Shown here: positions 16,941 through 50,357 of the stretch, one piece after another
Layout: every line of letters starts with the position of its first letter
How positions within the stretch are numbered: the stretch's first letter is position 1
NCBI GenBank assembly: GCA_964511175.1
Contig: CAZEEI010000004.1
Coordinates: 93,401 to 146,485 of the forward strand
DNA length: 53,085 nucleotides
Direction of reading: 5' to 3'
From: an uncultured Pseudomonadales bacterium
GTDB lineage: Bacteria; Patescibacteriota; Microgenomatia; UBA1400; UBA1396
Notes under the pieces: generated by a model
Database searches by the model: none
Told to the model about the DNA's origin: nothing
The model's input: only the letters and a program-made list of their open reading frames with translations
Translations under genes and position numbers: made by a program

Positions 16941-16945
16941 GATGT

Positions 16946-17252
16946 TGTTGCTATCCCGGTAAGCCGGATTCTGTTTAGGTGTTCATTTCTCTAGGCCCGC
17001 AGCTTGATCACCCGGACCGAAGTCCAAAGGGAACGCTTCCATTATGGTGAAGGTCGGCGGTTGCGACGGAGAGGATTGCCCCCACGCGAGCGTGGTCCAC
17101 TTGGCGTTTCACCCGGCGTTACCCGGCTCGTCTCTGTGGCTCTAACTGTACCCCGATTGCTCGGGGCCCTGGCTTTGGGCCAGCATCCTGCGTTCAGTCG
17201 TCCGGACTTTCCTCACTCTGCACTAGGCAGAGCGCGAACACTTCGGGACAGC
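16946..17252 (-). ncRNA. rnpB: RNase P RNA, bacterial type A, compact (about 305 nt)
   Basis: The minus strand reads GCUGUCCC..GAGGAAAGUCCGGAC..CCACAGAGA..GGGUGAAA..GGGCCUAGAGAAAUGAAC..ACAGAAUCCGGCUUACCGGGAUAGC. These are universal P4 strands (AGGAAAGUCCGG / ACAGAAUCCGGCUUA). P1 forms between GCUGUCCC (17252-17245) and GGGAUAGC (16957-16950). Confidence 0.9.
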
Positions 17253-17258
17253 TAGAAC

Positions 17259-24061: not shown

Positions 24062-24134
24062 GGCCCCATCGTCTAGAGGCCTAGGACGGCAGGTTCTCAT
24101 CCTGCAAACCGCGATTCGAATTCGCGTGGGGTCA
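24062..24134 (+). tRNA. tRNA-Glu (anticodon CUC)
   Basis: Cloverleaf folded by hand. Acceptor GGCCCCA/TGGGGTC, D-arm GTCT..GGAC, anticodon stem GCAGG/CCTGC with loop TTCTCAT, T-arm CGCGA-TTCGAAT-TCGCG, discriminator A. CCA is not encoded. Confidence 0.9.
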
Positions 24135-24198
24135 CATTTGAGATGTTTTGTCCTGCATTTTCATCCTAAATCCGCGCTAATATTCTTGTTTCCCGCGG

Positions 24199-25428
24199 AT
24201 GGCTATAATACATCCCATGTTGGCTCGCTTGCTTCATTCAGAAAAACGCAATATCTACCTATTTTGGATTCTCACAGCCACAATGAATTGCTGGTTTATT
24301 GCCAGTAACTGGATCTACTTTTGGACCAAGTACATGACGTATGGACAGCTCGGCTGGATCGATGCGCTTGGATTCGGGTTTGGTATGCTACTGGAAATCC
24401 CTTCAGGGGCTGTTGCCGATCTTCTTGGTAAACGAAAAACTATTCTGTTCGGCTTACTTTCTGGTGCAATGGGTGTAGTACTGATCACCTTCTCAGGAAG
24501 CCTTACCGGAATTTTTATTGGCTGGCTTATCACCCAAATCTGTTTTGCATTCTATTCAGGAGCCGCAGAAGCCCTGGCTTACGACACGCTGGTTGACCTG
24601 AAAAAAGAACATGAATATGACCGAATCATTTCCCGCAATAGTGAGATCGAAAGTTACACCGGAGCAATTACCACATTTCTGGGTGGTTTCCTCTATGTAG
24701 TTAATTTCCGTCTTCCCCATATGTTTTGGGGATTAAGTTTCTTGGTTGGCGCAATATTTGCTTACTTTTTAATAGAACCAAAAGTTGATACGGAAAAGTT
24801 TTCCGGCAAAAAATATTTTCGTCAACTTGGCGTCGGATTTATGGAACTCACTCAACCCGCTTTACGCAAATACATTGGCTTCTTTTTTGCACTTATTGGC
24901 GTATATTTTCTGTATTCATGGGGATTTATTCGTCCAGCCATGGCCACTAGTTTCGGTTTCTTCGCCGAATACCAGGCAGTGATTTTACCCTTATTAGCTT
25001 TGTTAGGAGCGCTGGTTGTTCGTACGATTCCTTGGCTTAAACCTAGAATCTCGGAATTTAAGGGGCTGCTGGTACTTTCTCTAATAATGGTGGTGGGCTT
25101 TTTCGCTGCCTCATTTCCGATCGGGTACTTTGGCATTATTCCGATGATTTTGATTGCCATAGCAGGATACCTGGCTACACCCTGGGTCTCGATCATTGTG
25201 AACAAAAACATTCAGTCCAGATATCGGGCCACAACACTCTCCACGCTAGCTCTTATAACCAAAATTCCGTATGTCCTGATAGCTGTTCTGGCAGGAAAAC
25301 TTATTGAGGAGGGGAGATTGGCAACATTCACCCTTTCAACTTCCGGAATTATCCTGTTTGTCGCTGTGGTTAGTACACTCTATGTAATCTTCAGCAAAAA
25401 GAGTAAGGTAAGAAAACTGTCATATTAA
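24199..25428 (+). CDS. MFS transporter
   Basis: About 12 hydrophobic helices with the loop 2-3 motif GAVADLLGKRKT. Confidence 0.8.
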   Translation: MAIIHPMLARLLHSEKRNIYLFWILTATMNCWFIASNWIYFWTKYMTYGQLGWIDALGFGFGMLLEIPSGAVADLLGKRKTILFGLLSGAMGVVLITFSGSLTGIFIGWLITQICFAFYSGAAEALAYDTLVDLKKEHEYDRIISRNSEIESYTGAITTFLGGFLYVVNFRLPHMFWGLSFLVGAIFAYFLIEPKVDTEKFSGKKYFRQLGVGFMELTQPALRKYIGFFFALIGVYFLYSWGFIRPAMATSFGFFAEYQAVILPLLALLGALVVRTIPWLKPRISEFKGLLVLSLIMVVGFFAASFPIGYFGIIPMILIAIAGYLATPWVSIIVNKNIQSRYRATTLSTLALITKIPYVLIAVLAGKLIEEGRLATFTLSTSGIILFVAVVSTLYVIFSKKSKVRKLSY

Positions 25429-25441
25429 GAAAATAGGCTTC

Positions 25442-26596
25442 ATGCTTCATTCGAATATAAAAGTTCTTACTTGGTTTAATTTCTTCACCGACTTTAAACT
25501 TTACGCGCCGATTGCGGTTATCTATTTCTCCCAGGTAACGTCTTCTTTCGCCCTCGGAATGAGTATTTTCTCTATCGCCATGATTGCCGCCGCGCTTTTT
25601 GAAATTCCTACCGGTGTTTTTTCTGACCGAATAGGCAGGCGAAAGACGGTAATATTAGGGGCCTTTGCCGCGGTTCTTTGTTCCATTTTTTATGCCATCG
25701 GCCAATCATTTTGGATACTCGCCGTCGGTGCTGTTCTGGAAGGACTGTCCCGCTCCTTTTACAGCGGCAACAATGACGCATTACTTCACGACACCCTCGC
25801 TCAGACCAACGAAAAGCATCAATATAGCGAGTTTCTGGGGCGGGTGAGTGCTATGTTCCAAGCCGCGCTGGCAGTCTCAGCCATCTTGGGCGGTATATTG
25901 GCGACTTGGTCATTTTCCCTAATCATGTGGCTGTCGGTAATACCGCAATTAATTTGTTTCTTTTTAGCATTTAGACTCATCGAACCCACGCTTCGCTCCA
26001 GGCAAAGCGGCAATATCTACCAACACTTGCGGACTGCCTACCAAAATTTTCTGACTAATAGAAAGCTCAGACTACTGAGTACGGCCTCTATTGCGGGGTA
26101 TGCCTTTGGCGAGTCAGCCTATCAATTTCAGGCCGCTTTTTATAACACGGTGTGGCCGGTGTGGGCGATCGGTATTGCCAAAACCTTGTCCAACCTGGGG
26201 GCAGCAACCAGTTTTCATTTTAGCGGCAGACTGATGAAAAAGTATAACCCTCTAAAAATTTTGATCGTCGACAACATTTACAGTCGAATCATCAACACCT
26301 TCGCCACTGCTTTCCCCACCGTCTTATCTCCCTTACTAATGTCCTCAACGTCAGTGTTTTTTGGCGTAACCAGCGTGGCCAAAAACTCTCTTTTACAAAA
26401 AGAGTTTGCTCATGAACAGAGGGCAACGATGAGCTCCTTGAATTCTTTTGCCGGAAGTATTGTCTTCGGCATTATTGCCTTTGCTCTAGGATTCCTGGCT
26501 GACCAAATATCTCCCGCCCACGCCTTGGTCGTACTGCAGATTTTCCAACTAGGGAACTTATGGTTATATTGGCGAGTCTTTAAAAATAGGGAATAA
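25442..26596 (+). CDS. MFS transporter (paralogous to upstream gene)
   Basis: About 12 helices with the loop 2-3 motif GVFSDRIGRRKT. Lies 13 nt after the first MFS gene. Confidence 0.8.
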   Translation: MLHSNIKVLTWFNFFTDFKLYAPIAVIYFSQVTSSFALGMSIFSIAMIAAALFEIPTGVFSDRIGRRKTVILGAFAAVLCSIFYAIGQSFWILAVGAVLEGLSRSFYSGNNDALLHDTLAQTNEKHQYSEFLGRVSAMFQAALAVSAILGGILATWSFSLIMWLSVIPQLICFFLAFRLIEPTLRSRQSGNIYQHLRTAYQNFLTNRKLRLLSTASIAGYAFGESAYQFQAAFYNTVWPVWAIGIAKTLSNLGAATSFHFSGRLMKKYNPLKILIVDNIYSRIINTFATAFPTVLSPLLMSSTSVFFGVTSVAKNSLLQKEFAHEQRATMSSLNSFAGSIVFGIIAFALGFLADQISPAHALVVLQIFQLGNLWLYWRVFKNRE

Positions 26597-26652
26597 TTAT
26601 CGATTACACAAGTCCAATTGACCCGAAAACTTATCTAAAACTAATATGCCGC

Positions 26653-26955
26653 TTATTTTCTAGAATATTTGGATCGAAACATCTCGCCAAGCCGCTCCTG
26701 GTCTTCCTGCGCTTCCCGCTTCATGTCTTGCAAAAAGGCTTCTCCTTGCGTTAGCGCCTCACCGCGGTCAGACCAAACAAATGTACTTCTGCTTGAGAAT
26801 TCCGTTTTAACAGTAGCCATCCAGCCAGTTTGGGATGGATCAAAACGGCCCTCAACACGTTGTAGAAAAACACGATAGCGCCCATCTGTTACAGCCGGCA
26901 TGGGATCTTCCATGATAACCCGTATTCCACCCCCACGTATTTCAATTCTTGACAT
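26653..26955 (-). CDS. Hypothetical protein (100 aa)
   Basis: Start set at the ATG preceded by GAAGGGAG (SD). Last gene of the NrtR-headed gene string. Confidence 0.45.
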   Translation of the reverse strand: MSRIEIRGGGIRVIMEDPMPAVTDGRYRVFLQRVEGRFDPSQTGWMATVKTEFSSRSTFVWSDRGEALTQGEAFLQDMKREAQEDQERLGEMFRSKYSRK

Positions 26956-27001
26956 ATTACTCCCTTCATTATCTTTGCAATTGTACCAAACGTATAAACT
27001 T

Positions 27002-27628
27002 TTACGGTTCAATACCTATTTTTCTCGCCAACTCTTGTGCCGACTGGTCCGGTGCAGTCGGATCATATAGAAAAGTTTGCCAACCTCTTTTTTGCGGTAC
27101 AACCAAATTCTCTTCCATGTTATCAATGAACAGTATTTCACCAGGATCTACCTGAGCCTTTTGTTCGGCCAGCGTATATATGGCCTCATCCGGTTTGCAG
27201 TAGCCCACCACACTGGAATCAACTACCGCATTCCAGGCAAATTGCGGCAGTAAATTATGCTCACTAATTCTACTTAACATCCGGGGATACATATTGGTTA
27301 GTAAACCAAGTTGATATGAGCCACCCAGCAAACTAATCAGCTTGGCGAGGTGGGGATTAGGTTCAAAACGATTAACAAAATCCATTAACAGCGAATAATC
27401 CTCAGACAAATGAGCATTGGCATTTTCATTTAAGACTTGGACAAAATTATCGATATCATAATCAAGACTAACCCGTGTGGTATGTTTTTCCCAAAGTGAA
27501 TCAAAAAGGTGAATGGTTTCATCCGTAAAACCTAGATCCCTCTTCATTTCACGCCATTTATTATTTCCCGAAAAATCGGCAATCAGTACGCCGCCGACAT
27601 CAAAATAAATAAATTGCAAATTTGGCAT
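27002..27628 (-). CDS. HAD superfamily hydrolase (subfamily IA-like)
   Basis: Motif I variant IYFDVGGVLI, motif II LLTNM, motif IV ILFIDNMEENL. Confidence 0.75.
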   Translation of the reverse strand: MPNLQFIYFDVGGVLIADFSGNNKWREMKRDLGFTDETIHLFDSLWEKHTTRVSLDYDIDNFVQVLNENANAHLSEDYSLLMDFVNRFEPNPHLAKLISLLGGSYQLGLLTNMYPRMLSRISEHNLLPQFAWNAVVDSSVVGYCKPDEAIYTLAEQKAQVDPGEILFIDNMEENLVVPQKRGWQTFLYDPTAPDQSAQELARKIGIEP

Positions 27629-27641
27629 ATCGATAACCTAA

Positions 27642-27941
27642 TTACCGAATTCTCTCCGCTTCGTCGGCCAGAACAAAGTCTGCAAAGTTTTGCCTATTTG
27701 ATTCTAAAAAGGTTGGTCTTTCTAAAAGAAGACAAAAAATCAAACGGTGTAACCACCATTTTTCTGCTTTAAGAGATTGGAATACTGGTGCTTCCCAGCG
27801 TATCGTTTGGCGAAGTTCGGCCTCCTCAAGATCAATTTGAATAAGTCTATCTTTAATTCGGGCAATGACGGCTTGTCTTTCTGCCGTATTCCATTCACTG
27901 CTAACTACCACTCTTTTATCTTCGGAATTTGGTTCTGCCAT
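27642..27941 (-). CDS. Hypothetical protein (99 aa)
   Basis: Co-directional ORF 13 nt upstream of the HAD gene. No family recognised. Confidence 0.45.
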   Translation of the reverse strand: MAEPNSEDKRVVVSSEWNTAERQAVIARIKDRLIQIDLEEAELRQTIRWEAPVFQSLKAEKWWLHRLIFCLLLERPTFLESNRQNFADFVLADEAERIR

Positions 27942-28004
27942 ATGATTTTCCCTTTTCTTGAGGTGGATTGTAACACAAGCTAATAAGCTCTAATTTATTA
28001 GTGC

Positions 28005-28862
28005 TCAAATTCTTCTAATTATTACTGTAGGAATTTCCATGCTTTTAATAGAACGCTCAGCCTTAGTTGTCGCGCTTTCATAATCTGGCCTCAGTAATAC
28101 GTCAGTGGCCAATTTTGATAAAAATTCTCGTGGGTTTTTCTCCAGCATAGCCAGTGCCTGCCCAACAACTCTCTCATCATTGAGGAAAATCTTGATTGCT
28201 ATACCCCCAATTATATTAACTGAATCAAGGGCAACATTTCCAGTTATGATAATAGTCGTTGATCCATTAGATTGCCGAGATTCCTCTTGAAAAACCCCTA
28301 CGAACAGCACGTGACTTTTGTTAGAACGATAGTAAGTGCCTGATTTTTCGAATAAATCCGAAATTGAAAAAAGACTACGGAATTTTCTCCAAGCATCATC
28401 TTTATAATCTTCCGGCACCATATTCAGGTTGTCTTCTCTAGAAGTAAGAAGGTGCCTTCTTTCTGATGCGTACCATATTTGCTTATCTTTGATTGTTTCT
28501 AGCCTCCCATCTTCTCCCGGCTCAACTGCGGATGGATTCCCATTTTGGAACCAGTCGGCTGTACCATATACGGTATGTGCTTTGATAGCCGTTATTAATT
28601 CATCAAGCGAAGGTTCTGTTTCTGGCACACCACTATTTTCATCCCGACGCACGTTTTTTGAAGAAGACATTATCATCGCTCTAAGTTTGGCTTTTAATGA
28701 TTCCACCACGTTCTCGCCGGGATCATTTCTTTGTTTAATCTTGCCCCATTCTTCATGAAGGCGCCCGCTGACAAAAGTCGGACTACTATAACTAATAGCT
28801 TCTCGGTAAAGTTTTTTGAGTTCAGAATTAATCAGCGATGGTTTTGCTTCAATATTCACCAT
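28005..28862 (-). CDS. Hypothetical protein (285 aa)
   Basis: Long ORF whose ATG directly abuts the stop of the Nudix gene (0-nt gap). No family recognised. Confidence 0.6.
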   Translation of the reverse strand: MVNIEAKPSLINSELKKLYREAISYSSPTFVSGRLHEEWGKIKQRNDPGENVVESLKAKLRAMIMSSSKNVRRDENSGVPETEPSLDELITAIKAHTVYGTADWFQNGNPSAVEPGEDGRLETIKDKQIWYASERRHLLTSREDNLNMVPEDYKDDAWRKFRSLFSISDLFEKSGTYYRSNKSHVLFVGVFQEESRQSNGSTTIIITGNVALDSVNIIGGIAIKIFLNDERVVGQALAMLEKNPREFLSKLATDVLLRPDYESATTKAERSIKSMEIPTVIIRRI

Positions 28863-29351
28863 TTATTCCTCAATCTGTAAATCGATCAGTTCGTTGCCTT
28901 TTTCGTAGACAGCTCGATAGGAAATAATCCTTTTGTTGTCTGAAAAAAGATGGGGGATAATTTCCTTAATCTCCGCCAACATATTTTCTTTTTCCAACAT
29001 TTCTGCCGGAGATAACCAAACCAGTTCGCCGTCCTCCGGTTCCGGCATGACTTCGCCGCCAGCATAATCGGCTTCCACAAAATGGAAGAAAAATTCTTGA
29101 TCGAGGTCTTGCAGATAAGCGTTGCCCGTGGCTATCACTCTCAGGTTTTTAATATCCAAACCAGTTTCTTCTTTAATTTCCCTGCGGGCGCAAGCAAATA
29201 ATCCCTCATTAAACTCCCGGTGTCCGCCTGGAGCCATCCATACGTCCGGCATAATTCTTTTGCCGGGGTTGCGATGTAACATAAGGTACTTGCCGTCCTT
29301 TTTCACAAAACATTCCAGGGTTACGGCGATATTTCTTTTCTTGGTAGCCAT
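28863..29351 (-). CDS. NUDIX hydrolase with intact Nudix box
   Basis: GGHREFNEGLFACARREIKEETGL fits GX5EX7REUXEEXGU exactly. Start set at MATKKRNIAV.. (SD-like AAAGGGA upstream), avoiding overlap with the upstream gene. Confidence 0.85.
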   Translation of the reverse strand: MATKKRNIAVTLECFVKKDGKYLMLHRNPGKRIMPDVWMAPGGHREFNEGLFACARREIKEETGLDIKNLRVIATGNAYLQDLDQEFFFHFVEADYAGGEVMPEPEDGELVWLSPAEMLEKENMLAEIKEIIPHLFSDNKRIISYRAVYEKGNELIDLQIEE

Positions 29352-29373
29352 AGTCCCTTTATACAGCATTTCT

Positions 29374-30006
29374 TTACTTAATTTCCACATACCGGTACAA
29401 AGCGGCGGGGCGATGCGAGACATTCTTCTGAATCCTAGCTACTTTTTTCACCACTCCGGAATCTAAAATCTTCTTACGGAAATTCCGATTATCCATCTTC
29501 TCTTGCTTAATTACTTCATATACCATCTGCAGGTTATTCAAAGTAAAGTAACGCGGCAAAAATTGCTTAGCAAACTGGTGATCTAAATTTTGCTGTAGAT
29601 AGACAAAAGCCAGATCGATAATTTCTTGGTGATCGAATGCTAATTTTGGCAACTGCCCGATTTCCTGAAAATTGGCGACGTTGGTCACTTTATCTTCCGG
29701 AAGCAAGGCAATGAAAGCGATTGATACTGTTCTCATCCGCGGATCGCGTCGGGGATTAGTGAAGGTATAAAACTGCTCAAAAAAGACATCGCTCATGCCG
29801 GTTACATCCCGCAGTTTCCTGGACAATGTCTCTTCCGCCGTTTCTTGCGCCAGCAATAAACCGCCGGGAAGTTCGGCCAAACCCTGGTAGGGCTCTTTTT
29901 CTCTCGTGTTTAAGTAAACCAATAATTTTCGGTCTTTGATGGTAAAAATGACGGCGTCCACGGCAATTCGTCCTTTTTCGTAATTAGGCTGGTGAGAATT
30001 TGGCAT
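29374..30006 (-). CDS. NrtR-like Nudix-related transcriptional regulator (degenerate Nudix domain plus C-terminal winged helix)
   Basis: The Nudix box is degenerate (GGLLLAQETAEETLSRKLRDVTGM: RE becomes RK, EE becomes DV). The C-terminus FTLNNLQMVYEVIKQEKMDNRNFRKKILDSG..SHRPAALYRY matches the NrtR wHTH signature (FTL..LQ..YE.I....D.RNFR.K...HRPA.LY). Confidence 0.75.
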   Translation of the reverse strand: MPNSHQPNYEKGRIAVDAVIFTIKDRKLLVYLNTREKEPYQGLAELPGGLLLAQETAEETLSRKLRDVTGMSDVFFEQFYTFTNPRRDPRMRTVSIAFIALLPEDKVTNVANFQEIGQLPKLAFDHQEIIDLAFVYLQQNLDHQFAKQFLPRYFTLNNLQMVYEVIKQEKMDNRNFRKKILDSGVVKKVARIQKNVSHRPAALYRYVEIK

Positions 30007-30014
30007 ATCCCGTT

Positions 30015-30023
30015 ATTGTAGCA
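30015..30023 (-). promoter_or_regulatory. Extended -10 element (TGcTACAAT) 8 nt upstream of the NrtR-like ATG
   Basis: Minus strand TGCTACAAT-aacgggat-ATG. There is no room for a Shine-Dalgarno sequence, which implies a leaderless or near-leaderless mRNA. Confidence 0.45.
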
Positions 30024-30046
30024 CACTTAACGTATAAAACACGCTA

Positions 30047-30074
30047 TTGACAAGCGGGGTGACATTGGTACGAT
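30047..30074 (+). promoter_or_regulatory. Sigma-70 promoter for the divergent gene at 30120
   Basis: TTGACA (30047-30052), 16-nt spacer, TACGAT (30069-30074). SD AAAGGTGG precedes ATG 30120. Confidence 0.5.
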
Positions 30075-30119
30075 TACCTTGCTTAACGTAATAAATAAGC
30101 TAAGTAAGAAAGGTGGTTT

Positions 30120-30449
30120 ATGTCAGCAGAAAGGGTGCAACCGATCAGCCCCAAGGAAGTAATCGATAAAAAGCTTAGTAGTATTCCCAGCGAAGCCATC
30201 GAAGCATTCAATGAGCTTATTGCGCAAAATACCGGCCGCGCCAATATTGTAGTTAAACAAGAAGAGGTAGTAGCCCTGATGGTGAAAAAAGGTTTGCACC
30301 GGGAACAAATCTTTAAAAATGGCTGGCTGGATATCGAAGATATTTACCGCAAGGCGGGCTGGCGGGTGGAGTATGATAAGCCTGGTTATAATGAAGATTA
30401 CGAGCCGACTTTCACTTTCCGGCCGGCCAAAGGCCAAACATTAAGATAG
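30120..30449 (+). CDS. Hypothetical protein (109 aa), divergent from the NrtR-like gene
   Basis: Has its own promoter and SD. An almost fully overlapping antisense ORF (30123-30437) lacks both. Confidence 0.6.
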   Translation: MSAERVQPISPKEVIDKKLSSIPSEAIEAFNELIAQNTGRANIVVKQEEVVALMVKKGLHREQIFKNGWLDIEDIYRKAGWRVEYDKPGYNEDYEPTFTFRPAKGQTLR

Positions 30450-30511
30450 TAGGGTTTCACATCTTAAATGATACAATATGGCGAAAGATTAAAGACGCAA
30501 GGAGTCTATAC

Positions 30512-30682
30512 ATGACCGAACAAGACGAACATTCCGCAGCAGCAACTGCCGCTCATTTAGAACAATTAGATTATCAACAAAGAGCTGATATCCTCAATCC
30601 TTTTCTGTTTACTGTACTTGAACTGGAGAGAATAATTGCTAGCTGTACGAATAACCTAGACAGAGTTTTTTTTTCAACATAA
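30512..30682 (+). CDS. Candidate small protein (56 aa), below the ORF-track length cutoff
   Basis: ATG 30512 is preceded by AAGGAG (30499-30504) at 7-nt spacing. Translation is MTEQDEHSAAATAAHLEQLDYQQRADILNPFLFTVLELERIIASCTNNLDRVFFST. Confidence 0.35.
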   Translation: MTEQDEHSAAATAAHLEQLDYQQRADILNPFLFTVLELERIIASCTNNLDRVFFST

Positions 30683-30783
30683 ACTTGACGAGGCAAAAAG
30701 AAATGGTGGAATTACGGGCGTAGGCCGCTTGACTAGTAATTAGGGTGGCTGGGTAAGCACATATGCTAGAGAAGAGTGCATAA

Positions 30784-31383
30784 ATGGTCGCTCGTCCAAC
30801 CTACAAAAACCAACTTTTTCCTCCTGAGGCCTTAGCTGGTGAAAATTACTCAGAAGCTACCTTTACCAACTGCCGCTTTACCGGCACTAGTTTAAAACTT
30901 ACTTCCTTTAAAAAGTGCCGTTTCAAAAATTGCGATTTCACCGGCGTCTGGTTAGAAATGACCGGTTTTTACGATTGCCACTTTTCCGAATGCAAGTTAA
31001 GCAACCTTGATTTTGCAGAAGTGGAGTTTAAAACCGGCACGTTCGAAAAATGTTTAATTAAAAACTCGATCTTTCAAACTTTTAAAGCCGGTGATAAAAA
31101 TGTTCGCGCTAAGTGCAACTTAAAACAAAGTCGATTTGCCGAATGTGATCTCACTGATTCAATATTCGTATCGTGTGATTTGACCGACACCAACTTTGCA
31201 AAAACAATGTTACTAAGAGTCCAGTTTGAGAGATGTCGGCTGGTTCGTACTAATTTTGTTGGCGCTGATCTCCAGCAGGCTAACTTTAACGAATCAACTA
31301 TTAATCAAGCCGTCTTAGACTTGGCCGGTTTTATTGCCTTCGGCCTATCCAAGGGTTTTATCCTGAGCGAGAGCAACTTTTAA
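30784..31383 (+). CDS. Pentapeptide repeat protein
   Basis: Continuous A(D/N)LXX-type pentapeptide periodicity (..CRFTGTSLKLTSFKKCRFKNCDFTGVWLEMTGFYDCHFSECKLSNLDF..). Confidence 0.85.
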   Translation: MVARPTYKNQLFPPEALAGENYSEATFTNCRFTGTSLKLTSFKKCRFKNCDFTGVWLEMTGFYDCHFSECKLSNLDFAEVEFKTGTFEKCLIKNSIFQTFKAGDKNVRAKCNLKQSRFAECDLTDSIFVSCDLTDTNFAKTMLLRVQFERCRLVRTNFVGADLQQANFNESTINQAVLDLAGFIAFGLSKGFILSESNF

Positions 31384-32301
31384 AGTGTGTTCCACCGCTT
31401 CCTGTACCGCTGGCCAATCTTTTTTAAACGCGTTATAAGCAATCCATCCCAAACCGATGTGAAGTTGGTAGCAAAACAGTCTGGCTGACAAATTGGCAGT
31501 ATTAGCCGCTGTAGTAACAAAATGAGCAATTATTTTTTGACAAAGTTGAACCTCGGCGAATTGAGGATACCAGGGTGCATAAAAAACAAACCAGGCAACA
31601 TCATACAAAGAGTCCCCATATAGGGAACACTGCCAATCAAGTACCGCACTTATTTTGGCATCCGCAACCAATAAATTGTAGTTGAGTAAGTCCGAATGAA
31701 TTAGCTCCCTTATTTCCGGACACTGATCTACTAAAGATGCTAGTTGGGCGTAGAGTTGGTCAAAAACTTTTGTCCCTAACGGGGAACTTAATAAGTTGGC
31801 ATACCAACCATGGGTGATACTTTCACTACGGTCATTTTTGACATCCAGAAGATACTCTCGCCAACTTTGACTACTTCCCATGCCATTTTTACCCCAACTA
31901 CCATAACCGGTCGATTCGGTTAGATCGATATTTCTGAGAGTGTCAAATAGTCTCAATAGAGCCGGTAGCGTTTTCGCCAATTCAACCGAATCAAGAGTGT
32001 CAATGAACTTGCCACTAGCAAACTCAGAGATTGCAAAGTATTGGTCAAGTTTTTTGCCGATATCGATAATTTTAGGAACCGGCATAATTTTAGAGTTAAA
32101 TGTAGCGGCAAAGGCATCCTTGGCAAAAGCTTCATCCGAGTTACCCCAGCGCAGGACATACTTTTGACGATCATAAACAAAAGAGTAGGCTTGTGACCAT
32201 TCACCACCGCTCAGCAAAGTGAGTTCGGAAACTTCTGAACCGAACTTCGCCTGAAGAAAATGGATAGTATTGGTGATCGAAATCTGGGGTTTTTGGGACA
32301 T
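31345..32301 (-). CDS. Aminoglycoside/choline-kinase-type phosphotransferase (APH family)
   Basis: Catalytic loop IHSDLLNYNLLV (HxDxxxxN) and VLDWQCSLYGDSLYDVA (DW..GD..YD). Confidence 0.8.
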   Translation of the reverse strand: MSQKPQISITNTIHFLQAKFGSEVSELTLLSGGEWSQAYSFVYDRQKYVLRWGNSDEAFAKDAFAATFNSKIMPVPKIIDIGKKLDQYFAISEFASGKFIDTLDSVELAKTLPALLRLFDTLRNIDLTESTGYGSWGKNGMGSSQSWREYLLDVKNDRSESITHGWYANLLSSPLGTKVFDQLYAQLASLVDQCPEIRELIHSDLLNYNLLVADAKISAVLDWQCSLYGDSLYDVAWFVFYAPWYPQFAEVQLCQKIIAHFVTTAANTANLSARLFCYQLHIGLGWIAYNAFKKDWPAVQEAVEHTLKVALAQDKTLG

Positions 32302-35002: not shown

Positions 35003-37642
35003 ATGCGTTTTTTACGTCGCCCAAAAAGAAGGTCGCCAGAACCGGAAGCCACTCCTGGTGTTAAGCGCATGCCTCGTCGTGAGTTTTTGCGGCTATTGTG
35101 GGAAGGTGGACAAACCTTGGCTTTTGCCCCACTTCTCGATTTTTCCTCTGATCTGGACGGTAAACAACTTGGTTTCACTGATTCACTGGAAGGTGATCCG
35201 GTGATTATCGCCGAGCGCCTTACCTCGCCGGAAACATTACACCCCTCAACTGATAATTTGCCCTTCTTCACCGAGCCATCCCCTAGCCACCTACAAAACA
35301 TTCAACCATTGGGAACTTTACCCACCAAACACCTAGCTGCCGTTGAACCAACCGAGTGGGCTCAACAATTGTCCGAATCCTCTTTGGGTTCTTTGGGTAA
35401 CAATATTAACTTCACCCTCAATACAGGAGAACCTACTCCTGCCAACCTGGTACGATCCTTAAATTGTAGTGTGTCTCACCCAGCTGTGGGTACTGAAAAT
35501 TTGACTCAACATTTTGGCCGGCATAATCCAGCTTTGTATGGTGATTGGTTCGGTGGAACTCATACCGGCACTGATTATCTTGGCGAATTTCCCTACACCG
35601 CCCCCTTCGAGGCGGAAGTGGTGGCCATTGGCTCTGGTTTTGATCAAGATGAACATAAGGGGTTAGGACCTAATGCCATCTTCTTACGTTCTTTGCACCC
35701 GGTTGGTCACGACGGTGAAGGCCACAATCTTTATCTTTATGCAGTATATGGACACGGCCAGTCAGTAGTACCCAATTTAGTGGTTGGTGATGTAGTTAGG
35801 CCAGGCGAAATTCTGGGCTTGACTGGCGCACTGGGTAACACTACCGAAACTCATCTGCATTTTGAAACCGCGCTTGGTCCTCATAACGCCCTAAACCAAA
35901 CTGAACAATTTATTACCTGGAAAGATCCCTCAAGAATAATCTATTTTGACAGTTCTAGTGTTTGGAATCACCAACTGCGTCGCCAATTAAACAACACAGC
36001 TACCGAGGATAATTTGGTTAAACAAATGGTTACTCACTTTCCCGAGCCAGACGAACACTTCGATCGTACCGGCTACCATGCCGACCCTAAAGAATATGGC
36101 TCCGGCCAGTTAAATATTGAAAACCTGCCAGCCCAGCTAAATGATGTTACCTATGTAATAACCGTTAACATCAATGATGGCTCATTGGGTTTATGGCAAA
36201 TGGGAGAGGCAAGCCAGCCACGAAAAGTTTTTGATACTAAGGTTTTAGTAGGTCAGAAGTTAAAAAGGGATTATGTTCTATCGGGGTCGTATGCCATCAC
36301 TGATCACGCTCAAGACGGTAGTTATGTTGATGGTCAGCGCGGTGTTCATTACAACCACCGTGGTATACCACGCGATACCTTAACTCCCCCTATGATCGCT
36401 CGCGTTAACGGTTTTGCCCAGATACAAAACTTTGCCCACGTAGACGATCTTACCTCGATTGCTGACATCAGCGCCTTACGCGAAGATGGCTCATTTGACC
36501 CCGATAGATCGCAATATACTATTAACCAAATCCCACCGGTACAACAATATGCTAACCGAGAACAAGCCCTGCTCGCTAGACTGTCAGATGTAGGATGTAA
36601 TTTTTCTACGGGCTGTGTCAATGTGGCCACCCGAGACTGGCAACGCCTGCTAGAGAACTGGCTCTCGCCAGCAATTAACGAGGGTAAAAAAGTTTATGTT
36701 ATTTTTTCTTATCCCGGCATCGACCACCAACAATTGCTTTTACCGACTGACTATGAAGTTAACCGCGATGATCCTTTCCTGGCGGGTGGTTTAGATAATT
36801 GGTATAACCGCACCAATAAAGTCAGTTTCCGCGAATGGGCCGCTGCCCGACCAGAGGAAGCATCTCAACTGATCAATAATTTTAACGATTTAGCCAAAAC
36901 GGTCATCCAAACTTATTTAGACCAATGCTATGCCGGTGTCGACCAGCCGGCATTTGCCCAAGCAATTAACTTTTGGCAGGAATGTTTTCCAGAAGGGAAA
37001 GATCAACGCCTCACTACTGAACCCGCTTTGACAGTTAAACAGCAAACAGCGTTTAATATTATTAACGGCTGGAAAGATAAAACTTTACCAGCATTGGCAA
37101 CTGTTAATACCACTGGTTGGGATCCTGCCAGTGATGTAGTTTTCTTCTCTGCATCCAGTGACACAGCTTTTAACAGCTGGATGAATAGTGAGCTGGGTCC
37201 ACTTGGTAATCTTGACATGAGTCTAGAATCACTATCATATTTTGAAACATTTCTTGGCAAGGCCGGTTATTCTATTGATCGTCCGGTCGAAATTCCCCGC
37301 TCAACTTTTTTGGCAGCGGAAGTGCTGTGGCGATTAGCCTCTAATAATCGCAGTATCGATCTCACTACGGCTCTAACCACCAAAAGAGCCTGGGCTGATC
37401 AGTTAGCTGCCGCCCTTTATAGCAATAGCCAGCCGCAACTACTACGAAATTGGAATCGCTTTTTCCAAGAGACCTATTATCTCAATCTAGTAACTGTACC
37501 GCTTACCAACCAGTTATCACAACCTACCCCCTACGACGGCGTTATTGACATTATGCATCGTTTACTTAATAACCAAACAGTTAACCAGGCTGAGATTAAC
37601 CAAGTACAGGAAGCTTTTCAGGATTGGCAAATCAATAAATAA
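35003..37642 (+). CDS. Large secreted M23 metallopeptidase-domain protein with long uncharacterised C-terminal region
   Basis: M23 motifs HTGTDY (HxxxD) and TETHLHFE (HxH). The N-terminus has MPRREFLRLLWEGGQTLAFAPLL (twin-arginine-like). A later STGCVNVATRDWQRL resembles the YkuD catalytic motif. Confidence 0.8.
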   Translation: MRFLRRPKRRSPEPEATPGVKRMPRREFLRLLWEGGQTLAFAPLLDFSSDLDGKQLGFTDSLEGDPVIIAERLTSPETLHPSTDNLPFFTEPSPSHLQNIQPLGTLPTKHLAAVEPTEWAQQLSESSLGSLGNNINFTLNTGEPTPANLVRSLNCSVSHPAVGTENLTQHFGRHNPALYGDWFGGTHTGTDYLGEFPYTAPFEAEVVAIGSGFDQDEHKGLGPNAIFLRSLHPVGHDGEGHNLYLYAVYGHGQSVVPNLVVGDVVRPGEILGLTGALGNTTETHLHFETALGPHNALNQTEQFITWKDPSRIIYFDSSSVWNHQLRRQLNNTATEDNLVKQMVTHFPEPDEHFDRTGYHADPKEYGSGQLNIENLPAQLNDVTYVITVNINDGSLGLWQMGEASQPRKVFDTKVLVGQKLKRDYVLSGSYAITDHAQDGSYVDGQRGVHYNHRGIPRDTLTPPMIARVNGFAQIQNFAHVDDLTSIADISALREDGSFDPDRSQYTINQIPPVQQYANREQALLARLSDVGCNFSTGCVNVATRDWQRLLENWLSPAINEGKKVYVIFSYPGIDHQQLLLPTDYEVNRDDPFLAGGLDNWYNRTNKVSFREWAAARPEEASQLINNFNDLAKTVIQTYLDQCYAGVDQPAFAQAINFWQECFPEGKDQRLTTEPALTVKQQTAFNIINGWKDKTLPALATVNTTGWDPASDVVFFSASSDTAFNSWMNSELGPLGNLDMSLESLSYFETFLGKAGYSIDRPVEIPRSTFLAAEVLWRLASNNRSIDLTTALTTKRAWADQLAAALYSNSQPQLLRNWNRFFQETYYLNLVTVPLTNQLSQPTPYDGVIDIMHRLLNNQTVNQAEINQVQEAFQDWQINK

Positions 37643-41205: not shown

Positions 41206-41508
41206 ATGAATCTCATCTTCCAATCGCGTCACGTCGAGCTCACCCCGGAGCTCCAGGAGTTTGTGACTAAGCAGCTTGAGGAACTGGAGCGGCACCAGTA
41301 CCGGCTAGATGGAGTCACGGTCACTACAGACCGTATTGAGAAAAAAAAGAATGATCCCGGCGCTAACCAAGTTACCCTCCTGGCTGATGTACCCGGTGAA
41401 AATGTGGTTATTACTTACCGCGCGGTAGACCTTAAGACGGCTCTCACTGGGGCAGTGGAGCGGTTGGACCGAGCACTACGCAAAACCAAAGAAAAGCGGT
41501 TGCCTTAG
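41206..41508 (+). CDS. hpf: Ribosome hibernation promoting factor / RaiA family (short form)
   Basis: 100 aa, MNLIFQSRHVELTPELQEFVTKQLEELER.. S30AE-type beta-alpha-beta-beta-beta-alpha pattern. Confidence 0.75.
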   Translation: MNLIFQSRHVELTPELQEFVTKQLEELERHQYRLDGVTVTTDRIEKKKNDPGANQVTLLADVPGENVVITYRAVDLKTALTGAVERLDRALRKTKEKRLP

Positions 41509-48782: not shown

Positions 48783-50357
48783 TTGATGTTTCGGGTATTA
48801 TTCGAATCCATGCACTTTGATAAGGTTGAAAAAAATCACAAGCATTATTTAGGCAGTTGGGGAGAGAAGTTACTAGCCTCCGAACACCGAGTTGGTGTTT
48901 TAACACCATTGCTGGTAATTTTGCTAGCCGCGGTGGGGGCTCGCGCTGCTGCTGCTCAAGATGGTGGAAGTGGAAATATTGCGCCAGGACTGCCAGCCGA
49001 AGTCATGCCGGAAGATTTGGATACTACACCGGGATTACTTCCTTATACTAATAACACTCCAATACACAGTGCTACCGAATTGCGAGATTTACTCAAAAGT
49101 GTTTGGGCTCTTTACGCCGAAAACCAAAATGATCCTGCCGCTTTAGAGCGTGCTCAAGCTAATTATATTTTGGAACAAATTTTAACCGGTCCGCTAACTA
49201 CAGGACCACGTAATGACTTAAGGGTTGAAAAACTCGGTTTAGGATTTACACCAGCTGTGATCAATGGCTTTAATTGGATGGACAAATACGGAGCACAGCT
49301 ATTTACCGAATCCAGTCTTCGTCAAACCGAAGATAATTTTGATGTCAAACCTTTAATATTTAATGGCAATCCCGCCGATAACTTTAATGTAGTTAGTATA
49401 TTGACTCCCGAAGTCACTCCCGATGGTAAATTTGCTCATGGTTTACAAGTCTTTGATTCATTCGATAATGTTTATGAAGTAACCCTTGCCCACGCTTTAG
49501 CCACTCTTTATCAAATTAGGGTGGGTGATGAGATACTATGGACTCGTCTAACACCTGAAGAACGCTTAAACTGGGCCATCGATTTAACTAACGCTTGGCT
49601 TAATCAACGGGTAAATGGTCCGGCTTTATGGGGACAACGCACGGTTAATTACTGGGACGGTCAAAAGAATGTACCACTATTCACGGTTATGAACGGCGAA
49701 GGTGGTTGGGCAACGTGTCGCGTTGAAGCCGCTCCGGCAACCTCCCAACAGCGTGTTGATCAATTCCTCACGACTAGGGGCATTCTTATTAAGGATCAAG
49801 ATGACGACACTAATGTGGAAACCCCCTTTGACAAAGGGAGCCGTAACAGTCATTTCGCTGTCGCTATTGCCCTAGACATTAATGCTCTCAACCAAATAGC
49901 CAGGGAGACTAATGGTAATTTAGCAGCGATCCGACAAGCCATTCTGAAATCGGCGGGTGCTTACGAAATTATCGATTTAGATACTGGTTTTAATGGTGAA
50001 GCTTCGCCAGAAAATCCGTGGACTCGCAATGTTATACCCACTGCTTATGAAGTGGGTGGTTTAACTTTTGGCGAAGAGTCTTTTGGGGAGGGGGACTTTA
50101 CTTCCTTGCTACGTTTCTGTGGCCCAGCCGCGCCAGCTCAAATAGAATCGACTCCCGCTAATGCAGCAGTATTGCCAGCAACCGGTAATGATTCTCCTCC
50201 TGGCGAAGAGCAACCACCAGAAGTTATACCACCCAGTAATCCTCCCAAACTCGACCCCGGTAATACTAACCGAAACGGCACTCTGCCAGATGAAATGCCG
50301 GATGAGGCCCCTGAGGGTGATACCGATTCTGATGAGGCCAACGAAAGCCCTCTGTAA
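48783..50357 (+). CDS. Secreted protein of unknown function with acidic Pro-rich C-terminus
   Basis: Hydrophobic signal VGVLTPLLVILLAAVGARAAAAQ about 40 aa in, so the true start may be a downstream ATG. Low-complexity tail PPGEEQPPEVIPPSNPP..DEAPEGDTDSDE. Confidence 0.55.
   Translation: MMFRVLFESMHFDKVEKNHKHYLGSWGEKLLASEHRVGVLTPLLVILLAAVGARAAAAQDGGSGNIAPGLPAEVMPEDLDTTPGLLPYTNNTPIHSATELRDLLKSVWALYAENQNDPAALERAQANYILEQILTGPLTTGPRNDLRVEKLGLGFTPAVINGFNWMDKYGAQLFTESSLRQTEDNFDVKPLIFNGNPADNFNVVSILTPEVTPDGKFAHGLQVFDSFDNVYEVTLAHALATLYQIRVGDEILWTRLTPEERLNWAIDLTNAWLNQRVNGPALWGQRTVNYWDGQKNVPLFTVMNGEGGWATCRVEAAPATSQQRVDQFLTTRGILIKDQDDDTNVETPFDKGSRNSHFAVAIALDINALNQIARETNGNLAAIRQAILKSAGAYEIIDLDTGFNGEASPENPWTRNVIPTAYEVGGLTFGEESFGEGDFTSLLRFCGPAAPAQIESTPANAAVLPATGNDSPPGEEQPPEVIPPSNPPKLDPGNTNRNGTLPDEMPDEAPEGDTDSDEANESPL

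Follow-up and report, generated by a model that had tools for sequence, protein, structure and literature searches.

The window analyzed here is a 53-kb stretch (53,085 nucleotides) of a contig from an uncultured bacterium, probably of the Patescibacteria (CPR) lineage. A sequence-only reading of this DNA had described six co-directional genes on the minus strand, here termed G1 to G6, separated by gaps of 22, 0, 63, 13, and 46 nt, and the open reading frame (ORF) list confirmed their positions and, with the start codons of that reading, the gaps. G1 (29374 to 30006) encodes a 210-amino-acid (aa) protein assigned to the NrtR (Nudix-related transcriptional regulator) family. This protein joins a winged helix of the NrtR type to a degenerate Nudix domain. 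G1 is followed by G2 (28863 to 29351), a predicted 162-aa Nudix hydrolase whose Nudix box is intact; G3 (28005 to 28862), a near-orphan protein of 285 aa; G4 (27642 to 27941), an orphan ORF of 99 aa; G5 (27002 to 27628), a predicted HAD-fold protein of 208 aa with the motif I DVGGV; and G6 (26653 to 26955), an orphan ORF of 100 aa. The 22-nt and 46-nt gaps hinge on internal ATGs chosen for G2 and G6. The G2 ORF runs to 29423 (28863 to 29423, 186 aa) and yields 162 aa from Met25 at 29351, a form from which the record in the protein collection differs; the G6 ORF spans 26653 to 27012 (119 aa), and its 100-aa form, from the ATG at 26955, matches the form on record. By codon usage, each of the six ORFs scored positive in the frame assigned to it and negative in the five alternative frames, and the scores of G3, G4, and G6 (0.106 to 0.154 bits/codon; 0.130 for G4 and 0.154 for G6) lay above the 0.096 of the highest-scoring shadow ORF among 21. 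Clear Shine-Dalgarno (SD)-like motifs precede G2, G3, G4, and G6 (GAAGGGAG in the case of G6), and a weak one precedes G5. From this spacing, co-transcription of G1 to G6 is plausible. On the plus strand and divergent from G1 lies G0 (30120 to 30449), which encodes a conserved partner of 109 aa and predicted target of the regulator, with a strong SD sequence, AAGGTGG, ahead of its ATG. The sequence-only reading missed G0 and the two operators beside it, which belong to the conserved unit.

Domain assignments computed with Pfam bore out the description of G1 as NrtR-like with a degenerate Nudix box, with matches to NrtR_WHD (PF21906; 5.5e-21, 74.9 bits, where the cut-off is 27) and to NUDIX (2.6e-7, residues 13 to 119). 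The box reads G-x5-E-x7-R-K-L-R-D-V-T-G-M; since R-K-L-R-D-V replaces R-E-U-x-E-E, the glutamates of the REUxEE signature are gone, and a degenerate Nudix signature is common, although not universal, in the NrtR family. G1 aligns over its full length, Nudix domains included, to its closest structures, which are BtAraR (PDB 5bs6; 3e-30) and then SoNrtR (3gz5; 6e-20), and all 41 members of the aligned family share DNRNFRK, the motif of the recognition helix. G1 shares with NrtR of Shewanella oneidensis, and with the family described by Rodionov et al. (2008), a degenerate Nudix domain joined to a winged helix at the C terminus; palindromic operators built around a GT-N7-AC core and a divergon layout with predicted autoregulation are further points in common. 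Judged by its sequence, G1 is a member of the NrtR family, with both domains and with predicted operators of the family type. Unlike NrtR, it falls below the cut-off of the NCBIfam equivalog NF050029 (ADPR-responsive repressor NtrR; 108.1 bits and E=4.7e-31, against a cut-off of 400), and by this comparison the two belong to the same superfamily and to different orthologous groups. The lineage of its host and the presence of homologues at ~50 to 55% identity in DPANN archaea also set it apart, as does its conserved target, a 109-aa protein of no named family.

A further difference from the NrtR family lies in the predicted regulon, which, like the whole 53-kb window, has no recognized nadV, prs, pncAB, nadDE, nadABC, niaP, or pnuC gene. 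No NAD synthesis, salvage, or PRPP gene was found for the G1 regulon in the cluster or in the window; the missing NAD genes of the cluster had already been pointed out, and no recognized NAD biosynthesis gene was present among the proteins scanned in either. Searches of the window with phage NadM and NadV by tblastn also gave no match. This lack had been regarded as unusual for an NrtR, a view that does not hold, since, among 62 nrtR genes that the founding paper covers, 20 are not linked to NAD genes (PMC2330246). The same paper lists 'nrtR<#>nrtX-nrtY' divergons of Streptomyces, Frankia, Proteus, and Hahella with the function '?' (PMC2330246). These resemble the pair G1-G0 in that an NrtR is divergent from uncharacterized genes across a shared operator region, with the difference that G0 is a single small gene and nrtX-nrtY a pair, as compared by layout.

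The predicted ligand pocket of G1 was compared with those of both solved relatives. The ADPR contacts R41, R98, and F15 of SoNrtR correspond to R35, R90, and Y9 of G1; R35, R87, R90, and H126 are invariant in the G1 family, and conservation is at least 90% at Y9 and K37. K37 occupies the position of SoNrtR N43, and the SoNrtR contact K76 is not conserved, being Val in G1. This last substitution would fit a regulator of AraR type, responsive to a sugar or a ribose-phosphate and not an ADPR sensor, with an NAD link that is only historical. BtAraR (BT0354 of Bacteroides thetaiotaomicron), an L-arabinose-responsive repressor, is the closest solved structure of G1 by sequence; the recognition helices are a close match (DKRNFRKR in BtAraR and DNRNFRKK in G1), R34/R35, R86/R87, and H131/H126 are conserved between the two, and recruitment of NrtR-family members to pentose pathways has been described (PMC2330246, PMC4666351). 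However, the Phe and Gly of BtAraR fill the phosphate site and close that of the nucleotide (PMC4666351), and where BtAraR carries Phe36 and Gly89 of this arabinose pocket, G1 carries Lys37 and the invariant Arg90, the equivalent of SoNrtR Arg98. The AraR-type pocket was thus not found in G1, no ara or other sugar-utilization genes were found nearby, and the conserved target G0 associates with nadV and nadM, so that we regard a sugar-responsive G1 as improbable. The closer overall relationship of G1 to the arabinose-sensing BtAraR than to SoNrtR is nevertheless counted against the explanation that we prefer, namely an NrtR repressor with a probably NAD-linked regulon.

Next, the control region between G1 and G0 was analyzed. 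Its 113 nt hold two 23-bp palindromes of the form CTTAACGT-N7-ACGTTAAG with the NrtR 'GT-N7-AC' core, a core described for NrtR operators as part of a roughly 21-bp palindrome (PMC2330246). Predicted operator A (30082 to 30104; CTTAACGTAATAAATAAGCTAAG) is an imperfect palindrome with 2 mismatches to this form, and predicted operator B (30026 to 30048; CTTAACGTATAAAACACGCTATT) has 3 mismatches. A position weight matrix (PWM) built only from orthologous loci, with the window's own sites left out, scored them at 25.8 and 25.7 bits, respectively, and found exactly these two sites in the 53 kb; the next-best site outside the control region reached 10.8 bits, and the shuffle maximum was 16.6. The only operator-linked genes in the window are hence G0 and the G1 operon. 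The position of operator A is conserved in seven orthologous loci (L002, L003, L006, L011, L053, L054, and L055), and that of operator B likewise in orthologous loci, so that, counting the window and 7 loci as 8 independent contexts, the two operators keep their places while the remaining spacer diverges. The consensus is nTTAaCGT-N7-ACGyTAAs, and ACGT-N7-ACGT palindromes were also observed upstream of the archaeal homologues.

Both operators lie close to predicted promoters. The G0 promoter (30047 to 30074, plus strand) is predicted from TTGACA, a 16-nt spacer, and TACGAT, with TG upstream of the -10 box; it agrees with the consensus at 10 of 12 positions, and in 26300 to 30800 it shares first place among the promoter-like sites found. 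Operator A begins 8 nt downstream of this -10 box and would therefore cover the predicted transcription start of G0. The G1 promoter (30015 to 30023, minus strand) is predicted from the extended -10 element TGCTACAAT, which is separated by just 8 nt from the G1 start codon (ATG at 30006), suggesting a leaderless or near-leaderless mRNA, and TGnTAnAAT occurs 6 to 10 nt from the nrtR ATG in all orthologues. Operator B abuts this extended -10 element and overlaps the G0 -35 box by 2 nt; since it sits at G1's own promoter, G1 would be autoregulated.

To what extent the neighbors of G1 belong with it was evaluated from the surroundings of homologues. Divergent G0 homologues, 48 to 67% identical, adjoin every G1 orthologue examined (7 of 7 orthologous contexts outside the window). 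In contrast, homologues of G2 to G6 were absent near all 10 NrtR homologues examined, and the gene downstream of nrtR varied by context (GNAT, YceG, an unknown, MBL-fold, and PMT_2). The only other copy of the G1-G6 block came from L001, which is this contig in another assembly. The six-gene arrangement is peculiar to one uncultured bacterium; the conserved unit is the divergon, consisting of G1, the 113-nt two-operator region, and G0. The sequence-only reading had proposed a dedicated ADPR/NAD-metabolite or defense module, a proposal that it had made dependent on the six genes being co-conserved elsewhere. As they are not, and as relatives of G3 and G5 were found in unrelated contexts, the proposal was not sustained. 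G2 to G6 are probably strain-specific passengers forming no conserved functional module, because the downstream gene differs between contexts, their homologues are absent there, and the third-position GC content (GC3) of G3 to G5 is low (0.31 to 0.37, compared with 0.47 +/- 0.06 and a minimum of 0.35 across 26 long window genes).

The downstream genes, taken one by one, bear on how far G1 to G6 may still act as one operon for the processing of, or signaling by, ADPR or another NAD-derived metabolite, maybe in phage/host conflict. G2 would then cleave a nucleotide diphosphate, G5 would dephosphorylate the product, and the three unknowns would be accessory. The co-directional genes with gaps of 0 to 63 nt, the SD-like motifs, and the lack of any terminator-like site in the intergenic gaps (scan of 26300 to 30800) fit a functional operon and also count against our explanation, and the ADPR-type appearance of the G1 pocket agrees with the proposal that NrtR-like Nudix-HTH factors regulate ADPR-centered conflict systems (PMC9503650). 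A Nudix enzyme and a HAD protein are also a chemically sensible pair, which we counted against the passenger reading.

The enzymes themselves, however, do not match such a pathway well. G2 was correctly recognized as a Nudix hydrolase (Pfam NUDIX, 2.1e-17); its box, GGHREFNEGLFACARREIKEETGL, is a perfect fit to GX5EX7REUXEEXGU, and it looks catalytically intact. ADPRase-type Nudix enzymes carry a conserved proline ~15 to 16 residues after the Nudix box. This proline is not present in G2, which reads Y-L-Q-D at positions +14 to +17 past the box, and its best PDB relatives are of the MutT, NUDT1, and NudJ type, which argues against an ADPRase. For G5, matches to Pfam Hydrolase (7.6e-9) and to NCBIfam TIGR02247 (7.8e-19, below the cut-off of that model) support the HAD fold, in agreement with the sequence-only reading. 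Its motif I, D10-V-G-G-V, keeps the nucleophile Asp and has Gly in place of the second catalytic Asp (Asp+2), departing from the DxDx(T/V) of HAD phosphatases, whose two aspartates act as nucleophile and acid/base. DVGGV is shared by a 43%-identical relative in L052, whose neighbors differ, and the PDB match of G5, 3cnh, has DIGGV. G3, G4, and G6 had been described as being without a recognizable family, and they gave no match in Pfam, NCBIfam, PADLOC, PHROGs, or PDB sequences. Among 1.84 billion representatives, G3 has only two remote relatives (E=1e-8 and 5e-6), both in unrelated, housekeeping-type contexts, and its AlphaFold2 (AF2) single-sequence model reached a pLDDT of 40; G4, G5, and G6 are singleton clusters. 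A role in defense found no backing either: with PADLOC, G1 and G2 matched no model other than PDC-S07, a generic Nudix one, and G3 to G6 matched nothing, and PHROGs gave no specific match, only generic Nudix/HAD ones. Together with the 10 of 10 loci lacking G2 to G6 and a compositional break between G2 (GC3 0.49) and G3 (0.33), this makes a single metabolite-processing operon quite unlikely.

That break could also mark G3 to G6 (or G4 to G6) as an island of orphan genes, either gained recently or evolving fast, with weak promoter(s) of its own and outside NrtR control, leaving only G1 and G2 in the nrtR unit. GC3 values below those of all 26 long window genes in G3 and G4 (0.31) and of 0.37 in G5, the lowest GC of the window (0.40) at 27 to 29 kb, the 63-nt and 46-nt gaps before G4 and G6, and the orphan status of the genes point in this direction. 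Nevertheless, the G2 stop abuts the G3 ATG, so there is no room for a G3 promoter outside G2; no terminator-like site follows G2 or G3; and a consensus scan, whose consensus may not suit the promoters of this organism, found no promoter-like site in the 63-nt and 46-nt gaps. We therefore consider an independent island unlikely and favor passengers that would be read through from the nrtR promoter.

Since the regulon that is conserved comprises G1 and G0, the nature of G0 was also explored. Neither Pfam nor PADLOC gave a match, and its family of ~105-aa proteins forms ~120 clusters, none of them named. The AF2 model on an alignment of 61 sequences reached a pLDDT of 90.8; the only structure that it matched significantly belongs to a phage protein without a name, and the PDB matches are winged-helix-like and weak (E ~0.05, TM ~0.45 to 0.5), so that no mechanism can be read from the fold. 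G0 relatives were found in 201 viral contigs and 5 roseophages, and in the latter nadM-Nudix and nadV flank G0. Among neighbor families, NadV is shared most widely; NadV/NadM lie within 5 kb in 9 to 10 of 80 viral G0 loci (~6 distinct groups), where G0 is usually immediately upstream of nadV, and are absent from that distance in ~88%. In 4 Patescibacteria loci, NMNAT-like or NadR-like genes lie 1 to 3.5 kb from G0, and among GTDB species representatives an adjacent NrtR was seen at only 2 to 3 of ~40 G0 loci. The link between G0 and NAD, which the sequence-only reading missed, is thus an enrichment and not a rule.

The phage arrangement recalls NAD+ reconstitution pathway 2 of phages (NARP2; Nampt/NadV plus Nmnat/NadM-Nudix), known from Vibrio phage KVP40, as G0 homologues lie between or next to both genes in roseophages, where gp110-gp111-gp112 of DSS3P8 are NARP2-type genes with a G0 homologue, and in several uncultivated viral contigs. 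NARP2 has been described as a two-enzyme pathway, with no third component mentioned in the available portion of that source (10.1101/2024.02.11.579819). Unlike NARP2 loci, our window has neither NadV nor NadM, and most G0 homologues are not beside such genes. Since the G0 family sits inside phage nadM-nadV clusters, G0 is probably an accessory factor of nicotinamide/NAD salvage, and this location, along with the Patescibacteria NMNAT-like and NadR-like genes, makes the regulon probably NAD-linked through G0.

Overall, these observations can be joined in a regulatory scheme derived in silico. A dimer of G1, acting as an NrtR-family repressor, would bind the two palindromic operators, with operator B set against the extended -10 element of its own probably leaderless promoter and operator A over the predicted start of G0. 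Release may follow when a small ligand, for which ADP-ribose or a closely related phospho-ribosyl nucleotide is the likeliest candidate, occupies the inactive Nudix pocket, while G2 to G6 would lie downstream by chance in this genome. We consider it reasonably likely that this locus encodes an NrtR repressor with a conserved and probably NAD-linked G0 regulon, to which G2 to G6 are passengers.

Two parts of this region behave differently in comparison. The six co-directional minus-strand ORFs proposed by the sequence-only reading are all present in the ORF list: G1 (29374-30006, 210 aa), G2 (28863-29351, 162 aa when counted from Met25 of an ORF reaching up to 29423), G3 (28005-28862, 285 aa), G4 (27642-27941, 99 aa), G5 (27002-27628, 208 aa) and G6 (26653-26955, 100 aa, in an ORF up to 27012). 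Counted from these start codons, the intergenic gaps of 22, 0, 63, 13 and 46 nt were reproduced. The description of G1 as an NrtR-like protein with a degenerate Nudix domain was borne out by Pfam (NrtR_WHD, 5.5e-21; NUDIX, 2.6e-7), and the catalytic glutamates are missing from its Nudix box, G-x5-E-x7-RKLRDVTGM. G2 was likewise recognized as a Nudix hydrolase (Pfam NUDIX, 2.1e-17) with the perfect box GGHREFNEGLFACARREIKEETGL; its best relatives among PDB sequences are MutT/NUDT1/NudJ-type enzymes rather than ADPRases. For G5, the HAD-like assignment is supported by the Pfam HAD Hydrolase family (7.6e-9) and by NCBIfam, and the protein carries DVGGV where DxDxV is expected. None of the proteins of the cluster scored above an NCBIfam equivalog cut-off, and G3, G4 and G6 indeed belong to no recognizable family, with zero matches in Pfam, NCBIfam, PADLOC, PHROGs and PDB sequences.

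The coding status of the six ORFs was evaluated from codon usage, using log-odds scores learned from 25 long window genes. All six scored above zero in their own frame and below zero in the other five frames. The values for G3, G4 and G6 (0.106, 0.130 and 0.154 bits/codon) exceed the 0.096 of the best of 21 shadow ORFs but lie below the mean of real genes, 0.262 bits/codon. Shine-Dalgarno-like motifs precede G2, G3, G4 and G6, and a weak one precedes G5. Overall, G4 and G6 are probable, not proven, coding sequences. The base composition of the block is uneven: GC3 is 0.49-0.50 for G0 (a small plus-strand gene divergent from G1), G1 and G2, and then 0.33 for G3, 0.31 for G4, 0.37 for G5 and 0.41 for G6. 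Among 26 long window genes the mean was 0.47 +/- 0.06 and the minimum 0.35, and G3 and G4 fall below every one of them. The break is sharp and coincides with the 0-nt G2/G3 junction; the stretch from 27002 to 29000 has the lowest GC in the window (0.40).

Several other features of the window were noted. On the plus strand, two tandem transporter-like genes (24199-25428 and 25442-26596) point toward the end of G6 in a convergent arrangement; the second matches MFS_1 at 9.7e-27, and the first is MFS_1 according to the Logan contig annotation of the same contig in a second assembly (L001). Beyond G0, a plus-strand pentapeptide-repeat ORF (30784-31383), Qnr/MfpA-like but below all cut-offs, converges with a 39-nt overlap on a minus-strand APH(4)-like phosphotransferase ORF (31345-32301; E=3e-38 to APH(4)-Ia, well short of its cut-off). 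The window also encodes PolX, a tRNA-Glu(CTC) gene (24062-24135, plus strand) and a class A bacterial RNase P RNA of 311 nt (16944-17254, minus strand; 109 bits vs a gathering score of 100). Judged by these chromosomal markers and by the closest homologues of its genes, the window probably belongs to a Microgenomates-like member of the Patescibacteria. Two long plus-strand ORFs, 35003-37642 (879 aa) and 48783-50357 (524 aa), had no Pfam match at E <= 1e-5.

The sequence-only reading raised the possibility that G1 to G6 form one dedicated module, and the comparative data argue against this view. A word-indexed search of 5.8 billion proteins with G3 returned only G3 itself, and a full HMMER search over 1.84 billion representatives returned two remote relatives (E=1e-8 and 5e-6). 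One of these, encoded near rpoBC on an 841-kb contig, is flanked by yceG and ruvX, and the second adjoins a FemAB gene; Nudix, NrtR and HAD genes are absent from the neighborhoods of both. A scan of viral contigs for G3 gave zero matches, as did a profile of the three G3 sequences against the PDB, and the single-sequence AF2 model of G3 (pLDDT 40) was unusable. For G5, a metagenome scan found one relative, 43% identical, with unrelated neighbors. G4, G5 and G6 are singletons at 90% clustering, and G4 and G6 had no matches in four HMM libraries and the PDB; that these two are orphans is defined by the 90%-identity clustering and by their absence from all fetched loci. The G1 family, by comparison, is large, with 807 matches below 1e-10, and ranges from Patescibacteria (Woesebacteria, Microgenomates) to DPANN archaea at about 50-55% identity. 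Ten G1-homologue loci were compared, drawn from protein look-ups (L002, L003-L005, L006, L053, L054 and L055), a genome scan (L007 and L011) and archaea (L058 and L059), and by tblastn homologues of G2 to G6 were absent from all ten. The gene downstream of nrtR varies with context and encodes a GNAT acetyltransferase, YceG, an unknown protein, an MBL-fold hydrolase or a PMT_2 glycosyltransferase. Because the relatives of G3 and G5 sit in unrelated contexts and G2 to G6 are missing from the ten loci, the six genes are co-conserved in none of the other loci compared, an outcome that the sequence-only reading had itself named as refuting the module. A role of the cluster in phage or host interaction had also been suggested; PADLOC and PHROGs gave generic matches only, and a defense or phage origin of G2 to G6 was rejected on the same grounds. 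The six-gene cluster is a local curiosity, with no new system to promote, and nothing ties G3, G4 and G6 to anything.

What is conserved lies on the other side of G1. Every orthologous nrtR locus has a homologue of G0 divergently upstream, a gene that the earlier reading had not included. G0 (30120-30449, plus strand) encodes 109 aa, and these homologues are 48-67% identical to it. When the nrtR-G0 intergenic regions were aligned, two 23-bp palindromes with the consensus nTTAaCGT-N7-ACGyTAAs were found at fixed positions, and the remaining spacer diverges. The predicted operator A (30082-30104) starts 8 nt past the -10 of a promoter-like site for G0 (30047-30074, plus strand; TTGACA-16-TACGAT with an upstream TG), the best such site in the region, and hence covers the predicted G0 transcription start. 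The predicted operator B (30026-30048) abuts the minus-strand extended -10 of G1, TGCTACAAT (30023-30015), which is 8 nt from the G1 ATG. Since TGnTAnAAT occurs 6-10 nt from the nrtR ATG in all orthologues, the G1 mRNA is probably leaderless, and its true start is probably the ATG at 30006 and not the GTG of the gene caller. The public protein record of G1, P0002 (195 aa), begins at a GTG 15 codons downstream of that ATG and is probably too short.

A search with the operator pattern gave three matches in the window vs 0.31 expected. With a position weight matrix built from other loci only, leaving the window sites out, operators A and B scored 25.8 and 25.7 bits, against 10.8 bits for the runner-up in the 53 kb and a maximum of 16.6 bits over 50 shuffles. 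The third pattern match, at 41414, is missing from the top matrix hits and was set aside as a chance occurrence. Described NrtR operators are palindromes of about 21 bp with a conserved GT-N7-AC core (PMC2330246), and both operators share this core. Rfam detected no RNA family, riboswitches included, in the cluster region.

In the archaeal loci, ACGT-N7-ACGT palindromes also lie upstream of the G1 homologues (L058 5860-6010; L059 5860-6010), followed by a TATA-like box, TTTATAAAT. This conservation is consistent with the recognition helix DNRNFRK, which is invariant in the G1 family, and one regulator-operator pair seems common to ultra-small bacteria and archaea. The two archaeal homologues, both from DPANN, are 52-55% identical to G1, and neither has a G0 neighbor in L058 or L059; the L059 contig also encodes TFIIB.

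To evaluate the possible effector of G1, its ligand pocket was compared with those of solved relatives. The closest structure is the arabinose-sensing BtAraR of Bacteroides thetaiotaomicron (5bs6; 3e-30, or 3e-46 with the family profile), followed by the ADPR-sensing SoNrtR of Shewanella oneidensis (3gz5; 6e-20, or 4e-33 with the profile). Residues were matched through these alignments, with roles taken from PMC4666351 and conservation assessed over 41 family members. Invariant in the family are R35, equivalent to the phosphate-contacting R41 of SoNrtR; R90, equivalent to the ADPR-contacting R98, where BtAraR has Gly89; and R87 and H126, equivalent to the ligand contacts R86 and H131 of BtAraR, both spatially conserved in SoNrtR. 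Conserved in at least 90% are K37, at the position of N43 of SoNrtR, which contacts the alpha-phosphate and whose site is filled by Phe36 in BtAraR, and Y9, at the position of the adenine-stacking F15. K76 of SoNrtR is not conserved, and G1 has Val68 there. Given these aligned contact residues, the pocket looks less suited to a free pentose than to a ribosyl nucleotide carrying phosphate, such as ADPR. One Microgenomates genome has genes for an ADP-ribosylglycohydrolase and a CYTH-domain protein (L054 3853-5357) at a distance of 2-3 kb from its NrtR-G0 divergon, which again hints at ADPR chemistry around the regulator.

In the mechanism we propose, G1 dimers would occupy operators A and B. Bound G1 would block the transcription start of G0 and, by covering the stretch immediately 5' of the extended -10, would also repress its own operon. 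Upon NAD breakdown, ADPR or a related ligand would accumulate and enter the dead Nudix pocket of G1, and the ligand-bound repressor would leave the DNA, allowing G0 and G1 to be expressed. Transcription from the G1 promoter probably continues through G2 to G6, since the gaps are short and no terminator-like site lies between the genes; the region has three such sites vs 4.9 expected, all inside ORFs. The products of G2 to G6 may still be useful to the organism. A Nudix and a HAD-type enzyme acting one after the other could plausibly clean up nucleotides, but G2 is closer to MutT/NUDT1/NudJ-type enzymes than to ADPRases, and G5 has the altered DVGGV motif.

The G0 family comprises proteins of about 105 aa with the motif GW-x-V-x-YDKPGYNE. 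G0 had no Pfam, NCBIfam, PADLOC or PHROG match, and a word search returned about 120 clusters, all unnamed. Its AF2 model, based on a 61-sequence alignment, reached a pLDDT of 90.8. Assignment to a known fold was rejected, as Foldseek against the PDB gave weak winged-helix-like matches (RepE, CodY; E >= 0.05, TM about 0.45-0.5), and the G0 profile found nothing below E=0.17 among PDB sequences. Among predicted viral structures the model had one clear homologue, A0A7S5KPP2 (44% identity, TM 0.83), and tblastn against GenBank phages identified five roseophages. In two of them, DSS3P8 and MD18, the G0 homologue gp111 lies between a bifunctional NadM-Nudix protein (NMN adenylyltransferase/ADPR pyrophosphatase) and NadV (nicotinamide phosphoribosyltransferase), and its start overlaps the nadM stop codon.

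The family is common in large uncultivated phage genomes, and IMG/VR holds a G0 relative in 201 viral loci. In several unrelated phages the gene adjoins nadV and/or nadM-Nudix; the viral loci noted for the family are L056 (5010-5324), L057 (5004-5300), L077-L080, L105, L112, L113, L130 and L132. NadV and/or NadM were found within 5 kb of G0 in 9-10 of the 80 viral loci fetched, from about six distinct groups, and in these loci G0 is usually directly upstream of nadV. No other neighbor family is shared by as many viral G0 loci as NadV; the remaining large neighbor clusters derive from groups of contigs that are close relatives of one another. As NadV occurs in 22-33% of large phages (PMC9503650), the background expectation is not negligible, at perhaps 1-2% within 5 kb by our rough estimate. 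About 88% of viral G0 loci, and most bacterial ones, have no NAD gene within reach, so the link between G0 and NAD is an enrichment, not a rule.

Among GTDB species representatives, 41 G0 loci were identified, nearly all labelled Patescibacteria. Most of the other Patescibacteria loci have neither an adjacent NrtR nor the operator, and G0 was therefore rejected as a universal NrtR partner. Among those without NrtR, a 172-aa NMNAT-like gene (three loci) or a NadR-like NMNAT/kinase gene (one locus) lies 1-3.5 kb away. Other loci have a TrmB-like or an HTH-Nudix protein upstream of G0: a TrmB-like regulator in four without NrtR (L023, L024, L038 and L039, about 5150-5910), and an HTH-plus-active-Nudix protein in L029 (3225-3884) and L017 (5173-5865), with a downstream counterpart in L040 (6959-7663). 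G0 may be under different dedicated regulators by lineage. Nine GTDB records titled 'uncultured Gammaproteobacteria' or 'uncultured Pseudomonadales' (L007, L009, L011, L015, L018, L020, L030, L036 and L037) contain Patescibacteria-type G0 or G0-NrtR; their titles look unreliable, or the bins look mixed.

Two independent contexts, the bacterial NrtR operator and the phage nadM-nadV embedding, tie G0 to NAD turnover. A tentative proposal, which we hold with considerable doubt, is that the G0 family is an unrecognized component of nicotinamide-based NAD+ salvage and reconstitution, either partnering or regulating NadV/NadM or binding NAD, ADPR or nicotinamide. [quoted passage not shown]

G1 has the features of the NrtR family, namely both domains, the degenerate Nudix box and the matching operator type, whereas its predicted regulon has no recognized NAD gene and its score against the NCBIfam NrtR equivalog is 108 bits against a threshold of 400. 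The sequence-only reading had called an NrtR without NAD genes unusual. The absence of a recognized NAD gene stands, but the situation is a known one, since the founding paper includes such members, among them 'nrtR<#>nrtX-nrtY' divergons whose function is listed as unknown and pentose-pathway recruits (PMC2330246). The conserved NrtR-operator-G0 divergon is a variant of this known regulatory kind. New here are the occurrence in Patescibacteria, with homologues in DPANN archaea, the particular operator, and G0 as a target family that is associated with nadM/nadV in phages. NARP2 has been described as a two-enzyme pathway of NadV plus Nmnat (10.1101/2024.02.11.579819). A third, unannotated gene within NARP2-type clusters, as in gp110-gp111-gp112 of DSS3P8 (NadM, the G0 homologue and NadV), would make the G0 family of experimental interest.

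Patescibacteria generally lack complete cofactor pathways, and few of their regulators have known targets. For this group, the NrtR-G0 divergon offers a concrete and testable prediction of both the operator and the target of an NrtR-type regulator. Phage NAD+ reconstitution is a current topic of anti-defense research, and G0 is a worthwhile lead for research into NAD salvage and phage counter-defense.
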